A DNA stretch of 64,000 nucleotides. Origin: Ophelia neglecta (lineage: Eukaryota). Shown here in pieces: positions 3,401 to 28,196 of this stretch (the stretch's first letter is position 1; each line of letters opens with the position of its first letter). A program made the position numbers and the translations under genes. The stretch spans positions 64,356,001 to 64,420,000 of the forward strand of contig OZ260664.1 of the NCBI GenBank assembly GCA_965285935.1, written 5' to 3'. The notes below the pieces were generated by a model. It did not search any database and was not told where the DNA came from. It saw only the letters and a list, made by a program, of their open reading frames with translations.

Positions 3401-6400
3401 CCCCATGTTCAGGCATTCCTCATCTGAAATCAAATACAATATTTATTTAGGAACCTATTGTTTTGTCTGAGTTCTAGGAAAATGTGAAACATCTTATTCA
3501 ACTCAGTTTGCTGTCAGGATCAGAGATACTCTGTATTTGTACTCTGTACTTGATACATTCTATAACCAAAAGTTATATATTTATTCAAAATAAGAAAATG
3601 GAAAGGAAGCTTGTACTATACAAAGCCAGAGATAAATCTTTTTATAATAAATGAAAGTCATTAATTTATTGTCCACAGTTCATTATAGGGTGTTATAATA
3701 TCAGTGGGGAAAAAAAGGTATAAACTGTTTGATGTATTTGATACATAAAAAGGACTTCTGAAGACATTTTATCAGTAAAGATAACATTAACTACCAGAAA
3801 TCACATTATTCATTGGGCATGCTTAGTCTGAATGAGAAGCAGTGTACAAAGCAAAGAGTGTGCTAGTAGTATCTATCAAGAGGAGCTCTCTACACATGTA
3901 GATAAGAGTCGGAGGGACACACCTTGTGGCCGGCAATGGTCCGACATTGGACTGCCCTGCTCACATTGCTGGCAGCACTCCCCACCTTTATCTAAAACAC
4001 GAGAACAAGCTCGCACCAATATTCTCGTAAATACTAAAAAACTACTCAACTACACTACCATTAAAAATTGTTAACCCATCCAAGTTTAAGCCCAAATAAG
4101 AAACAAGATATAAAATTATATTGTAAAATTAACCAAACTGTCATGCTAAAATGCCTTAAGTATTGCATTAATTTATTTCACAGGTACAACAATGGTAGGA
4201 CTTGACTGGGTTACCAAGTTTACTAGTATCATTGTCTTTTCCAAATCACACGTAATTGCATCAGCAGTCTTGATTCCACAAGTTGATAAAGTTTACTTTA
4301 CACACAACATGTACATCGAAGTTATGCAGTAGCTAGGGCCAAGTAAATTACACGTACAAATTTAACCATCAACAGTTTATTATATTGTTTAAAAATCAAT
4401 GTAATTGTATACATATCCACACATATCAATTCGTTCACTGCTAAATTTATTATTGCAAGTATGTCCCTCTATTTGGGATGGAATGATCTGTATTTAGTAG
4501 CGGTTCTGTTAAAGGGCCTCACCGGTTATATTCCTGCTATTGTCCGAGTTGGACTCTGAGCTGATCTCCGGCTTGAGGCAGCTGTCACTGGAGTGGCTGC
4601 CGGCCTGGTGCATGTAGTTCTCCGGCTGTATGGGTCTGAAGGCGCTCTCGGGCAGCGGTGAGCTGTGCTGCTGGTTGATCAGGTTGTTGCTGGTGACCAG
4701 GGTGGTGGTGGCGTACGGCGTACAGTTGTTGGGGTTGTTTTTGTTGTAGAAGGTTTTCATGGGTGGCTGTTGCACGTTGGGGGTGTTGTACAAGTTCTCC
4801 TTCAAGGCATCCTCCTTCGATCGCTGGTCCATCACATTGGTCACATCTGGTTGGCGATCAACTGGATGTCAGTAACAGCAACACATTCAACAAGCCATTT
4901 CATGCATTACAATTTAAGATAAGTTTTTCACTGTATCACTTTAAATGAGCAAATAGGAAGATGAGGAAAATGCAAAAAATAACTCAGCTGAAATTAAAGC
5001 AGTACTTCAGTAAATTCGATCAAGATTTATATTTTCCATATACTCATAAAGTATTAATCGAGGGTGTAGCCTGCACACTCTTACAGTCATATTTATTATA
5101 GGGTTGCCATATTTGTCCCTGTGGAGGATCATTCTCATTATGGGAACCATCGTCTTGACAACATGTGGGAACACACGTCTGCTTGCCCTGGTTACCATGT
5201 GAGGGACCAGTGTCAGCATTCCTTGGGAAAAGTAATGAAATATAACCTGAGAAACATGCTACTCACCATGATTTGCAATGTCTTTCTGCAAGTAGTTAGG
5301 AGCGTTGAGGGTGTTGAATAAGCCACCAAGCCTGTCGTAAAAGAACAAAGCATGAATGCAAAGCCACTGCCCAAACCAAAGCAGCTAGCTATCACACAAA
5401 AAGAAAACAGGATGAATATGGTTAGGATGAACTGGAGAAGAGGTCATTGTGATATCTAAATGATATTGATGATGATAGTGATGATGATATTGATGATGAT
5501 ATTGATGATGATAGTGATGATGGTGGTGAAGAGGGTGAGGATGAGTGAGTTATATAATGTTGTTAGAATATGTATAAAATGCTGGTATGTGTAAATAGGA
5601 TTAGAGCAGGTGGATATATGGACAATTATATACTACTGCCTCAAGGAAGATATCTGTGAAGAAGGATACTACAACCATTAACAGCAGTAGAATATTAGTA
5701 ATCTAGCTTGGTTTTAATATGATTTAAAGACATATAAAGCCAGTAGGATGCATAAGATATGTTTACGGTGAGCCGTTCTATGCCAAATGCATGAGCCAAT
5801 TGCCCTTATTAACCCAGGCTTATAGTCCGGTTATCAGGAATAAGTATCAAACTTCACTTATTATTATATACTTAATTAAGCTTGTTTTACAAGTATGATA
5901 ACTATTAAGTCAGCAGTGTCTTTACAACAACATTTGGATTGAGGCAGGACACAGAAGTTAAAATTCATCTTTCACTAAGTTCCATCAAAGTTCATATGAA
6001 TACATTGGACCATTGCTCCAAAATGTTGACACATTGAAAAACCAAATGAACTAATCTAAATTAAAGGTACCTGGTTGTATCCTCTGATTTATGTACAGGC
6101 ACTGCAAAAAAGAAAGGAAAAGACTAAAATCATTTCCATCATAACAACTGAGGGGGGAAACATCCTGGATTCCAATTTCAGATTGTTTTTGTGCACAGTG
6201 TACAGTAAAGTAACAGTGTTACACACCAGTCATGACTCCGTTTTTGTGAAGTTTCTTTCTGGCTTTCCTTTTTCTGTACAGCCATATACTGAAGAAACAG
6301 AGTGCGATCCAGAGGGTGCCACCGATGGTGCCAATCAGGGTGGCAATGAACCAGGGCTCCTTGAATATCCCTTCCTTCTTAGAGGCAGAATTGTCACCTA

Positions 6401-9400: not shown

Positions 9401-12400
9401 GGTACAAAACATTCTGCAAAACTACTGCAGTGTTTGCAGCTTAGCAAGGCATTAATGTGAATTGTGCATGTCAAGAAAGAAAAAAACATTTGGTTTTTGA
9501 GAATGTAACAGTCATGTATAAAGAAACCTCATTTGAATACTGTCTAAGGTTACAAGTACAGCAGAGACAGTGTATATAATAATACCTGATTATTTACCTC
9601 ACTGGTTTCCTTGTTCCAGAAGACAGCTGGAGGGGGGTTACCAGTCACCTCACACCTAAACGACACCCTCCTCCCCACCCCAACCACCTTGTCTATGGGC
9701 GTAACAATGAACTTAGGCTGAGCTGAAAAACATCAATCAAGATAACATAAAGCACACATTAGTTACTTCATAAAATAGACATTTATTTATCATAATAGAT
9801 GAGCTTCTCCTGTACATTTCAAGGTCTCTGAATGACTTGGCAATGAATTATTATTGTAAAAAGCGCTTGGCAGCTGCAGACGGGCACTTCATAATTCACT
9901 CTTATCATTCTTTCCTTGAGATTAAAAGCCTGACTGTAAAACACTTTAAGATCAGTTCAGTATTCTCGCAGTCTCTCCTCTCTACGTTACTTACATCTAC
10001 AGTTTAAAGTTAAGTTTTAGCTTTTTCATGTGTTGCTTTAAGAAATTTTTTGACAAATAGTGGCAAGGCGGAATGGCAAAGAAATTAAGAATCAAATGGA
10101 ATAAATTTACACAAGGAGAAAAACTCATGGTGCAGGAACTTGACAAAATGGTAGTAAGAAGTGTTTTAAACCTCAACAAAGAAAGGGACCAGTAAAAGTA
10201 AACATTCTGAGATCATTTACCTGAGCAGGAGAAAAAATAAAATTTTCAAATTCCTATTTTAATTTTGTTCTCATTTCCAATAAAATTGCCCAGGGCAGTC
10301 TTGTTAATGAACATATTAAAAATGATGGCTTAGACTCTTTGTATTTACTTACAATTGACCGTGAGTGTGGCGGAGGCTTCCACATATCCCACGGAGTTTT
10401 CTGCTCGGCAGATATACGTTCCTTGATCATTCTCCTTTACCTTGGTGATCTGCAGACTTTTGTCTTCAAGTATATTAGACCTAAAACACAGCCTTCAGGT
10501 TAGCTACAATTATACTACAAACTTTTACAAGATATCGGAAAAAAGGTTTATCCCCTAATTAACAGGACACTAAATGGAGTTATTATGTTAAAGAGAAGCT
10601 GCATGTACGACCTCATAGCCATGGATTTATGTCAGCTTAGTACATGGTTCCTACTGTTAATCAGTAATCAATTTCTAAAATCCTCAATATTGCCATAGAC
10701 TTTGAATTTTTTAAAGTATGTTTACATCAAGCAACAGATACTCTTAGCCCATGCACTTACCGGCCTTGAGGTATCTGCCCCTCCTCTTTCTTCCAGATGA
10801 TGGTAGGTTCCGGATCGCCATTAGACTGGCACTCAAACCGGACATCCTGCTCCTCCTCCACTAGCTGGTCTGATGGTGATTTAGAAAACTTTGGCTTCTC
10901 TGGAAATAATAAAAGATAATGTGTCTCACAACATAAAAATCCCTGTCACCATTCTTTCAGATTCGACTTTAACATTACATACAAACTTCTACATGCTGTC
11001 TGAAGTCTCAAATGAGGCCTTAGTAATCTAGCCATTAACCTGTATATTTGACTCACCTCTGACAAGGAGCTTGGCCGGTATGCTCTCCTTCTCACCAGCC
11101 ACATTTTGTGCTATACACACATATACGCCAGAGTCCTCCTTCCTGGCATTCTGTATCATCAAACTGCCAGCCTCCTGTATTATTAAGCGTCCTTCGGCCC
11201 GTACCACCTCTCCGCCTTTCTTCCATTTAACCCTGGGCTCGGGCAGCCCACGGGGCGGGTTACACTCCAGGACTGCTGTGTCCCCCACTGCGACCTCTGT
11301 GTTGCGAGGTTGAGAGCGGAAGTCATCACGCAAAACTGGAATGGGAAGGCAATGTCCTGTGTAAACACATCTACATGGCAAGACAACTGTGATTAGATAG
11401 ATACTGCAAAAATATAATGTAAACCTATACCAGTAGTTGTAATTGTACTGTAACCAAACAATGTTCAAGGGCAGGAATTTTTTGGGATTTTCACTAAATT
11501 TGTAAACTTTTCCTTGCAGACACAAAACTTGGAAGGTTGACCACACGAGTTATTTTAGTACAGTAGTACTGATCTGTGAAATTTAATGTGCCAAATAAGG
11601 CCGAATTCCAAAATCTGGCTTTTCCTGTCACTAACATCTTGCGATTTACATTAATAGTTTGCAGAGACAACTCTTATGTCAGGTCTATGTAAAGTGTATA
11701 TCAAAGGCACATATATCAACCATGTAATCTAATTACATAGAAATATACTACTGACAGATGAGCCAGTAAAATGTAAGATCCAGCTGATGCTATAGTAGTA
11801 GCTCTGTGAAGTTCTAAGCCTCCAAGCCGACTGATACTGGAGGTTCTCTGAATGCCAATAAAGCCATTCGTCCTACTTAAATGATGGATGAGCTGAGGAA
11901 AACGCACACATTTCCTAAGTATCGTCAACTGTATAGTGCTCAGGATTTCTGCCTTCAGCTATCATGAAAACCCGATAGAGGAGACATAAAACTTTGTGTT
12001 CAAGCACATACCCTGCCTCGGATGCACCTGCAGAGATTATGTGAGGCTGATTCACAGTTTTTATATTGGGATGATAATCCGGTGGCTCATTCATAGCATT
12101 GTTTGGGAATTACAAAAACCCTACGGGGAATAATGGCGCTTCAGATTACCGCAATTATGAATGTGATAAGGCGGGATTCTATGATTCCTGCATCGACAAA
12201 TCATTAATCTGCAAGCTATTTCCACACCAAAGAAAAGCCATTTGTTGTATCATCAAGAAATACACCTGGGGATTCTGAACAGGACTGCTAATTAGATGTC
12301 TTTTTGAAATAATTAATTTTAGCAATATGACTTCATAGCAAGGACAAGATAAAAAGTGTCTGCCACATTGCCAAAGCACATATTTGTAAATAAAAATTGT

Positions 12401-27400: not shown

Positions 27401-28196
27401 AAAACAAGGAATGGTATGCCAGTTCTCCCTTCTATAATAGAAGGCTTTAATGCCTGCAGAGCCTGGGATCAGTTTGGCTGGCTTTCTTTTTCACTCTCCT
27501 CTCCTCATGTTTCAGAGTTAAGCCTACAGAACATGTTCTTTTTAGATGTCCCGGAGGCACACCATGGAGTGTGGAGATCCTCTAACAAGGTGAACAACAA
27601 TGTCTAGTGACTGTACAGGCCAGGATGGCTCCTAGAAGACCGTTTGTTGGCCTACACAATGATCTGGCAAGCCAAAGCCGATGTCAGCAGATCACAGTGA
27701 AGAAAAATCAGGCTATCAAATATACATCTCCGCTGTTTGGACTAGTTTGTGGAAGGATGCCTTTTTATTTTTTAACAACCAGTTTATTAATGATAAAAGA
27801 TCTATACTATTATTGAAAATAATATCTATCACTCTTCTGTACTACTTTCATTATTTGACTGGTTCTCCTTACCTGCAATTTCCAAGGTGGCATTTCTGCT
27901 GATGACGCTGACTCGTGTCTCGGGATTGGTGGCGTTGCAGTAGTAGACCCCCACATCCGGCTTATTGTTCTTGTTGTGGATGATCCTCAGGAAAAAGAGC
28001 TGTCCACTTGGTAGGAGCATCCGATGGGAGGTGTGGTCCTCGGTGGCTGTGGTCACCGGACGGCCATTACGGTACCAGGTGACGATGGGCGGTGGATCTC
28101 CTTCTGCCTTGCAGTTCAAGGTGGCCGGATCATTCTTCGCCACATACTGGTCTTCAGGGTGTTCTATGATCCGAGGATTGGTTATCTGCTGAACAC
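195..28196 (-). CDS. robo: Roundabout (Robo) receptor, multi-exon gene span; 5' signal-peptide exon not in window, 3' end may extend past base 1
   Basis: Exons join in consistent phase with GT-AG boundaries into ~1455 codons: 5 Ig + 3 FN3 + TM + cytoplasmic tail. Robo hallmarks: PRIIEHP..PATLNCKAEG.P.P..WY, SHRMLLPSGQLFFLRIIH, NATLEIA|VLRDDFR, PPPIIHQGPQNQTL, TPYATT (CC1), LPPPPEHPPP (CC2). Confidence 0.96.
1814..2005 (-). CDS. robo: Robo cytoplasmic exon with conserved SW.S...SSDGSFFAEADFASAVAKAAE motif
   Basis: ccactctccag|CT TCA TGG...AAA G|gttaat; resembles the vertebrate Robo [21 protein letters not shown] motif. Confidence 0.9.
2214..2413 (-). CDS. robo: Robo cytoplasmic exon (RMDHSG...DVDTVA)
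   Basis: ctgacattggtttccag|A ATG GAC...GCA G|gtaaca; phase 2-1, with branch point. Confidence 0.85.
2832..3423 (-). CDS. robo: Robo cytoplasmic proline-rich exon with CC2
   Basis: ttgatttcag|AT GAG...AAT AG|gtaagc; FLPPPPEHPPPSD (CC2, the Ena/VASP-binding motif in other Robos). Confidence 0.92.
3923..3991 (-). CDS. robo: Robo candidate symmetric cassette exon (69 nt; DKGGECCQQCEQGSPMSDHCRPQ)
   Basis: ttgttctcgtgttttag|AT AAA...CAA G|gtgtgt; GC-rich island in an AT-rich intron, phase 1-1, stop-free. Confidence 0.65.
4523..4861 (-). CDS. robo: Robo cytoplasmic exon with CC1 motif (acceptor at 4861 or in-frame at 4846)
   Basis: ...ENLYNTP...CTPYATTTLV...NIT; donor ACC G|gtgagg; C/G-ending codon bias. 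Confidence 0.9.
5085..5221 (-). CDS. robo: Robo candidate alternative exon B (137 nt; RNADTGPSHGNQGKQTCVPTCCQDDGSHNENDPPQGQIWQPYNKYD)
   Basis: tttcattacttttcccaag|G AAT GCT...GAC T|gtaaga; stop-free, GC-richer than flanks, same 2-1 phase as exon A; acceptor is AAG, which is weaker than YAG. Confidence 0.55.
5267..5331 (-). CDS. robo: Robo cytoplasmic exon A (65 nt; RLGGLFNTLNAPNYLQKDIANH)
   Basis: ctttgttcttttacgacag|G CTT GGT...CAT G|gtgagt; phase 2-1, restores frame to the CC1 exon. Confidence 0.78.
5460..5530. repeat. Imperfect (GAT)n microsatellite; reads (UCA)n / YCAY-rich on the robo transcript
   Basis: tgatattgatgatgatagtgatgatgatattgatgatg... Confidence 0.85.
6071..6101 (-). CDS. 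robo: Robo 31-nt juxtamembrane microexon (VPVHKSEDTTR)
   Basis: Very strong polypyrimidine acceptor (cctttcttttttgcag|TG CCT GTA) and donor ACC AG|gtacct; phase 1-2, bridges the TM exon to the phase-2 exons downstream. Confidence 0.75.
6227..6397 (-). CDS. robo: Robo exon, transmembrane helix and basic stop-transfer segment
   Basis: ttttttgtag|GT GAC...ACT G|gtgtgt; EPWFIATLIGTIGGTLWIALCFFSIWLYRKRKARKK. Confidence 0.93.
6625..6790 (-). CDS. robo: Robo exon, FN3-3 second half
   Basis: ttctttcag|ATT...GTT G|gtaagt; IFLFANES...LVRGMQYNAQILAYNRMGDGVKS. Confidence 0.93.
6926..7041 (-). CDS. robo: Robo exon, FN3-3 first half
   Basis: atttcccag|TG CCA...TAC AAG|gtacca; VPSAAPQNI...VRLFWDPPPKERTNGPLKGYK. 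Confidence 0.93.
7213..7468 (-). CDS. robo: Robo exon, FN3-2
   Basis: tcactgcag|GTT CGC...GAT G|gtgagc; FIEGFHIKYR...LRNLKKYTWYEVRIQPFY...SNTVRVRTFED. Confidence 0.94.
7719..8009 (-). CDS. robo: Robo exon, FN3-1 C-terminal part and start of FN3-2
   Basis: ttttggctag|GGC TGG...TGG GAT|gtaagt; GWVVASD...LRPDTAYMFLVRAQNSHGLSLPS...AVKLNWD. Confidence 0.94.
8378..8568 (-). CDS. robo: Robo exon, linker + FN3-1 N-terminal part
   Basis: ttgattttag|CT CCC...GGA GAG|gtaagg; ...FPGPPSKPSISDTTETSMRLMWK...YTVEYFSHETGE. Confidence 0.94.
8748..9035 (-). CDS. robo: Robo exon, Ig5
   Basis: tgtgtgttag|AT GTG...GAA G|gtaagt; DVDPRPPPIIHQGPQNQTL...DTGMYTCKALSETGETAWSAALIVE. Confidence 0.95.
9173..9332 (-). 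CDS. robo: Robo exon, Ig4 second half
   Basis: tttttgtag|ATC CTG ATG...AAG G|gtaagg; ILMFPRQDHGRFSVTDDGTLVIEPVRKEDDGQYICQALSVAGSSYAKARLEVK. Confidence 0.94.
9598..9722 (-). CDS. robo: Robo exon, Ig4 first half (alternative in-frame donor at 9586)
   Basis: tttttcag|CT CAG CCT...AGT GAG|gtaaat; SQPKFIVTPIDKVVGVGRRVSFRCEVTGNPPPAVFWNKETSE, phase 1-0. Confidence 0.92.
10353..10480 (-). CDS. robo: Robo exon, Ig3 second half (absent from ORF track)
   Basis: tgtgttttag|G TCT AAT...AAT T|gtaagt; SNILEDKSLQITKVKENDQGTYICRAENSVGYVEASATLTVN, phase 2-1. Confidence 0.93.
10761..10899 (-). CDS. robo: Robo exon, Ig3 first half (absent from ORF track)
   Basis: attatttccag|AG AAG CCA...GGC CG|gtaagt; EKPKFSKSPSDQLVEEEQDVRFECQSNGDPEPTIIWKKEEGQIPQGR, phase 1-2. 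Confidence 0.93.
11057..11335 (-). CDS. robo: Robo exon, Ig2
   Basis: ttcccattccag|TT TTG CGT GAT...AGA G|gtgagt, 279 nt; [34 protein letters not shown]...YVCIAQNVAGEKES. Confidence 0.96.
11446..11565. mobile_element. Possible degenerate short MITE with TACTGTA...TACAGTA ends
   Basis: Only 7-bp terminal inverted repeats; single copy seen. Confidence 0.25.
27873..28196 (-). CDS. robo: Robo exon, Ig1 (Slit-binding domain)
   Basis: ttttttgtcggcag|GT...GCA G|gtaagg, 324 nt, phase 1-1; GVQQITNPRIIEHPEDQYVAKNDPATLNCKAEG...RNATLEIA. Confidence 0.96.

Follow-up and report, generated by a model that had tools for sequence, protein, structure and literature searches.

The window, a stretch of 64,000 nucleotides of Ophelia neglecta DNA, carries a Robo gene on its minus strand. 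Joining eighteen exons between positions 28196 and 2832 gives a single stop-free frame, and the joined protein shows 55% identity over approximately 1,300 aligned residues with the Robo of the nemerteans Tubulanus and Lineus, 57% with a transcript-derived Robo and 38-52% with molluscan Robos. These identities mark the animal as a lophotrochozoan, and an annelid by our guess. The 18-exon frame and the exon-by-exon matches place the product among the Robo receptors, with five Ig domains, three FN3 domains and one transmembrane (TM) helix, the fn3 match on one exon being weak and below the cut-off. Of the conserved cytoplasmic motifs of the CC0-CC3 series, TPYATT and the poly-proline motifs are present and align with those of named Robos. 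No second Robo gene was found in the 762 Mb genome among the candidates scored (33 of 364 in one search and 2 of 2 in the other). Positions 28260-64000 of the window, probably the Robo 5′ intron or upstream sequence, showed no long reading frame whose product could be recognised, and the signal-peptide exon of Robo was not located in the window.

The part of the gene that encodes the juxtamembrane region is organised as follows:

6397-6227, minus strand: TM exon of Robo, phase 1 to 1; 72% identity with Tubulanus Robo and 82-88% with other relatives.
6101-6071, minus strand: microexon of 31 nt encoding VPVHKSEDTT, phase 1 to 2.
5331-5267, minus strand: exon A, 65 nt, phase 2 to 1; acceptor CAG, donor G/GTGAGT.
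5266-5222, minus strand: spacer of 45 nt from the A donor to the B acceptor, GT..AG, T-rich (42%), predicted to be too short to splice.
5221-5085, minus strand: candidate exon B, 137 nt and 45 codons, phase 2 to 1; acceptor AAG, donor T/GTAAGA; encodes a Cys cluster and a Tyr motif.
5084-5044, minus strand: read-through past the B donor to a TGA at 5046-5044; probably intron and not a terminal exon.
4861-4523, minus strand: shared downstream exon carrying the ENLYN and TPYATT motifs, phase-1 start, donor at 4523.

The TM exon had one match in its own genome. The A/B region was likewise single-copy in a DNA search of that genome, so B gives no sign of being a common repeat. The microexon has a counterpart at the same position in three related loci (L002, L003 and L004) and a peptide counterpart in mollusc Robos. 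We take the motifs of the downstream exon to be CC0-like and CC1. This exon has two in-frame acceptors 15 nt apart, scoring 4.7 (4861) and 3.6 (4846), and the residues encoded between them are kept by homologues; 4861 is the main acceptor and 4846 a weaker in-frame alternative. If B were joined to 4846 the junction would read Tyr-Asp-Tyr-Val, which resembles an SH2 docking motif.

Two further places in the gene were recorded. After the CC1 exon, the open frame accommodates a 69-nt phase 1-to-1 exon at 3991-3923 (minus strand) whose peptide is rich in Cys (CCQQC); as its phases are symmetric, it could be a cassette. The 5′ part of the 418-nt intron at 2831-2414 (minus strand) includes a window of high GC content (0.52), and this intron may conceal a further small exon; nemertean Robo has residues at this position that are absent from the present gene model.

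A preliminary description of this DNA had proposed A and B as a mutually exclusive pair, and the coordinates, lengths and phases that it gave for A, B and the microexon are all correct. The two share their start and end phases, and each restores the downstream frame. When joined in silico, microexon plus A and microexon plus B both remained open with either downstream acceptor, which bears out the claim that each alone links to the CC1 exon in frame. Stops arose in the joins of microexon plus A plus B, of the microexon alone, of A or B without the microexon, and of A with the spacer retained. The accompanying claim, that including both exons or skipping both shifts the frame, stands for A plus B and for a skip that keeps the microexon. 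It fails for a skip that takes the microexon as well, as the TM exon joined directly to 4861 or 4846 is in frame, and this leaves room for a third form.

The length of the spacer was compared with introns of the same genome, sampled from 20 myosin loci. One intronless myosin served as the reference to which the other 19 were aligned with a spliced aligner set to a minimum intron of 25 nt. This gave 282 intron calls; 83 of them, in which 4 or more of the 8 residues on each flank were identical, were taken as confident. The confident introns had a minimum of 86 nt and a median of 207 nt, none of the 83 being shorter than 86 nt. With a looser threshold of 3 of 8 (133 calls) a single 45-nt call appeared, the next smallest being 71-75 nt; that call is an aligner artefact and reads through as the myosin P-loop. 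The 149 calls of lower confidence, among which further short ones fell in loops that aligned poorly, were disregarded. All Robo introns (n = 17) were at least 125 nt long. Within this sample, which consists of myosin and Robo genes only, the 45-nt spacer lies below the minimum intron and is about half the floor of the genome. Judged from the size distribution, A and B could hardly be joined, and the earlier statement that such an intron is too short to splice thus gains local support from both minima. The survey also brought up an intronless myosin-head gene at G000:C8:42860759-42862801, which may be a retrogene, together with myosin paralogues clustered in tandem at two places, near 56.73-56.81 Mb on C5 and near 2.84-3.00 Mb on C8.

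Two other readings depend on this spacer. B might be a poison exon, with A and B joined over the 45-nt intron, the frameshifted message degraded and the level of Robo tuned in this way. The A+B frame does stay open through B, with a stop only in the next exon, and C. elegans removes introns down to approximately 40 nt according to the accessible text of one study (PMC4165533). Against it stand the floor of the confident introns here and the coding-like signal described below, which lies in the 2-to-1 frame of B and not in the A+B frame, and we regard a poison exon as very unlikely. Less credible still is a one-base assembly slip at the B acceptor that hides a phase-1 start and makes A and B tandem exons of one frame. 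One extra base would put A+B (65 + 137 nt) in frame, and the B acceptor lies outside the cover of the haplotype contigs. The spacer would nevertheless remain at about 44 nt, far under the floor, and the sequencing run X1, although it may be the assembly's own source, contains 0.99 of 85 sampled words of 4520-5335.

Exon A has relatives elsewhere. A scan of metagenome contigs gave four candidate loci: two of them (L003 and L004) span the A/B region, L002 ends before exon A, and L005 was discarded as a spurious short match. In the search for further related loci, viral contigs gave no match and genome contigs a single one, bacterial and spurious. L003 and L004 are distant, with roughly 50-88% exon identity. 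In L004, A is present with 76% identity over 21 aa and a phase-1 donor, and in L003 a more diverged positional orthologue has the same start, phase and position. On these alignments, exon A is a conserved exon of the Robo gene. Among 179 proteins fetched, 122 reach from the end of the TM to CC1 (38 distinct segments) and include 30 named mollusc and nemertean species as well as transcripts, with no named annelid. A loose x-K-(D/E) motif occurs at the position of A in 121 of the 122. Local alignments of A with the mollusc Y-x-(Q/H/E/R)-K-(D/E) segment were mostly not significant (7 of 10 proteins), and A thus appears linked to that segment by position and loose motif only.

For B the searches came out differently. 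Neither L003 nor L004, both of which have A, holds a counterpart of B as DNA or as peptide in the introns around A. The comparison of both peptides with related genomes that had been suggested earlier therefore recovered A in each of the two loci and B in neither. As these loci are distant, the absence does not refute B but confines it to a narrower lineage, and an exon kept at the family level would escape detection. The Cys cluster or a W-x-P segment was found at the A/B position in none of the 122 homologous proteins. No homologue of B was found in the PDB, in Pfam or in a protein collection that, searched at lengths of 80-2000 only, is weak evidence. Matches to B in the ESM Atlas were to bacterial hypothetical clusters only, under 0.9, and were treated as noise. 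A resemblance of B to the start of the intron after A in L004 was not significant (p 0.24 for peptide and 0.11 for DNA). That intron of L004 does contain, 362 nt after the A orthologue, an open stretch, rich in GC and followed by a good donor but unrelated to B in sequence, whose tandem acceptors would give a 53-nt 2-to-1 exon (L004:11276-11328) or a 51-nt 2-to-2 exon (11278-11328).

A and B differ in length (65 versus 137 nt), their DNA alignment scores 12, below the shuffle mean of 15.4, and their peptides score 14. By these comparisons the two are not duplicates of each other, and homologous tandem duplication does not describe the pair. Cephalopod Robos (octopus, cuttlefish/squid) carry lineage-specific peptide blocks at the same place, on both sides of the A-type segment, which indicates that the juxtamembrane region does gain lineage-specific exons. 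These blocks have no similarity to B and add in frame to the A-type segment, whereas B would replace it. Short cephalopod blocks (P0076, P0139-P0152, P0054 and P0055) were seen to vary between isoforms and species.

The splice sites of B were scored with matrices trained on the 83 confident introns. The B acceptor scored 4.3 (14th percentile of real sites), against 4.7 for the true downstream acceptor, and the B donor 6.3 (25th percentile), whereas the sites of A reached 8.1 (acceptor, 65th percentile) and 9.8 (donor, 81st percentile). An AAG 3′ end, as in B, was present in 3 of the 83 confident introns. Control sequence of about 80 kb contained 6 open 2-to-1 pseudo-exons neither of whose sites was weaker than those of B (approximately 0.075 per kb), one of them as long as B. 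At this rate the introns on either side of A should together contain about 0.09 by chance, and the short Robo introns about 0.4 in total; taken by itself, the splice geometry is thus no more than mildly unusual. With a first matrix, which was built on 20 Robo sites and penalised AAG heavily, the number was about tenfold higher (14 acceptors within 16.5 kb, 24 within 35.7 kb); the pseudo-exon count is therefore model-dependent.

These figures bear on the main competing explanation, that A is constitutive and that B goes unused in the intron behind it, either as a pseudo-exon arisen by chance or as a former exon in decay. Splice sites in the lower quartile, the number of splice-compatible frames expected by chance, larger still with the first matrix, and the lack of a counterpart in L003, L004 or the 122 homologues would all agree with it. 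The composition of B points the other way in part. Its GC content is 46%, against 25-38% in Robo short introns, and its T content is 22-23% in both halves, against 38-42% on either side. B is thus a T-poor, GC-rich island along its full length, bordered by T-rich tracts at the predicted splice sites. Windows of 137 nt at least as GC-rich as B were nevertheless found in 4 of 41 myosin introns of at least 200 nt, which again favours an unused B. A composition score contrasting Robo tails with intron translations, trained on ten other Robos, gave 15.3 bits for the predicted frame of B, close to the median of 16.0 for the gene's own Robo tail, and about zero for its other two frames. Among 255 control open frames of at least 45 codons in 79 kb, none reached 15.3 at its best window (maximum 14.0). 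This speaks against an unused B, the signal being confined to the frame that the splice sites predict, although a recently silenced exon would show the same composition. The test was designed after B had been seen and the true exon A scores -2.1; it is therefore supportive and not proof. B looks like coding sequence in its predicted frame, and an unused B, for all that agrees with it, seems to us unlikely. RNA structure around A and B was not above that of shuffles (z 0.42) and lends no support to a docking-site mechanism.

B could also be used with other boundaries, as a phase 1-to-1 cassette following A from 5153, as an exon spliced directly to the TM exon at the acceptor 5246, or as a short exon of 26 nt with its donor at 5196. 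The frame is kept when 5153-5085 is added to A, and the cassettes that cephalopod Robos add on both sides of the A-type segment, one of them after it in octopus, provide a parallel; the acceptor at 5153, by contrast, is in the 1st percentile and is preceded by T-poor sequence and not by a pyrimidine tract. The acceptor at 5246 outscores 5221 (6.4 against 4.3), yet it lies 20 nt from the A donor and would add a T-rich, intron-like stretch. The donor at 5196 likewise gives a 2-to-1 exon but falls below 5085 with the larger matrix (4.5 against 6.3). With 5246 or 5196, A and B would exclude each other all the same. Taken together, such boundaries appear improbable.

A second haplotype was available as DNA contigs for the intron after B. 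Its divergence is high over about 115 nt of 4932-5074, with 10 substitutions and 3 gap bases that include a 2-nt deletion at 5074, and these changes alter the read-through peptide beyond the B donor after three or four codons. The variant-free segment 5075-5105 counts for little, as it is the 31-base end of an assembly bubble, and the haplotype contigs leave 5106-5440, with A and most of B, uncovered. The stretch was matched in three sequencing runs from one sample and one study, which behave as DNA and are uninformative on expression. The preliminary description had noted, correctly, that B read past its donor stops at the TGA at 5046-5044, and had suggested that B could instead be a terminal exon. 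The frame indeed runs 13 codons beyond the donor, and the resulting Robo would be truncated before CC0/CC1, akin to a dominant-negative receptor; mouse Robo3 is described as altering its tail by intron retention in the splicing text of a review (PMC12308364). The suggestion is weakened by the second haplotype, where an indel changes the read-through frame, by the lack of any AATAAA or ATTAAA between this TGA and the next exon, and by a composition that becomes intron-like right after 5085. We consider a terminal exon hardly probable.

From its sequence, B is probably used as an exon. The fuller reading that we lean towards, with rather less assurance, is a lineage-restricted pair of non-homologous, mutually exclusive exons, with A as the default and exclusivity enforced by a steric block together with a frameshift. 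The two-isoform proposal of the preliminary description survives here in its anatomy, its frame logic and a coding-like B. The two exons are not equals, A being conserved in related loci and B having no counterpart in L003, L004 or the 122 homologous proteins. In such a pair the microexon donor at 6071 would pick either the stronger A acceptor at 5331, as the default, or the weaker B acceptor at 5221, as the minor choice, the default being suggested by the stronger splice sites of A. The chosen exon would then be spliced to the CC0/CC1 exon at its 4861 acceptor. The 45-nt spacer would physically prevent A and B from both being included, and an A+B or microexon-only product would be frameshifted, meet an early stop upstream of further introns and be directed to nonsense-mediated decay. 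The use of 5221 and 5085, the unspliceable spacer and the decay of aberrant forms are what we infer.

Two receptors would result, differing only in a segment of 21 or 45 aa approximately 27 residues inside the membrane. B would add three cysteines, possibly for lipid anchoring, and two tyrosines, possibly for phospho-docking, before CC0/CC1; these roles are speculative and assumed from general knowledge of such motifs. One GCATG element lies directly after the A donor, and regulation of the Rbfox type through GCATG elements is likewise our speculation. More tentatively than the pair itself, the arrangement might be pictured as a newly arisen, non-duplicated exon captured 45 nt behind an ancestral juxtamembrane exon, forming a switch doubly locked by steric block and frameshift, by which some neurons would get a Robo with a Cys cluster and additional tyrosines close to the membrane.

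Robo output depends on the cytoplasmic tail. If the favoured pair is real, an either-or swap of the juxtamembrane segment would provide a clade that has received little study with a new means of tuning Slit-Robo signalling. In mammals, exon 6b of Robo1 and Robo2 and exon 21 of Robo2 are cassettes that change repulsion, and in the accessible text of that study mouse Robo2 exon 21 encodes 42 aa between CC1 and CC2, Robo1 exons 18 and 21 also having been assayed (PMC6687390). Robo2 exon 21 resembles the model for B in that splicing of a cytoplasmic segment can alter repulsive activity, whereas these mammalian exons, as described there, are included or skipped and would differ in this from the exclusive pair proposed for A and B (PMC6687390). 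A review of Robo names 6b and Robo3.1/3.2 only in its splicing text (PMC12308364). Robo3.1/3.2 shows splicing that alters the Robo tail, yet by C-terminal intron retention, and thus resembles only the terminal-exon alternative (PMC12308364). ROBO1 splicing events were classed as skipped exon or alternative 3′ site in the part of another paper available to us (PMC11863264), and a term search of a leech robo paper found isoforms or splicing not mentioned (PMC10071614). A mutually exclusive pair of Robo exons was not found in the literature searched, of which the accessible parts were covered; supplementary genome-wide exon catalogues could list one.

The mechanism itself is textbook knowledge, with C. 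elegans egl-15 5A/5B as a known example, and A/B would be a new instance of it, in Robo. In the accessible text of the C. elegans study, 29 mutually exclusive clusters are verified, 22 homologous and 7 non-homologous, with 5 having unspliceable spacers and 14 relying partly on nonsense-mediated decay (PMC4165533). If real, A/B would be a clean case of such a pair arisen without exon duplication. The closest likeness is with egl-15 (FGFR), whose 5B and 5A exons are 14 nt apart (PMC4165533): as with A/B, non-homologous exons of unequal length lie in a receptor gene, with a spacer below the minimum intron of the species. The five C. elegans steric clusters (egl-15, let-2, bet-2, gly-5 and gly-6), as far as that text describes them, have exons of 3n length verified by RT-PCR or reads. 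The A/B pair, with its candidate B known from sequence alone, differs from them in encoding a cytoplasmic segment and in having exons of 3n+2 length, so that the steric block and frameshift with nonsense-mediated decay would act together.
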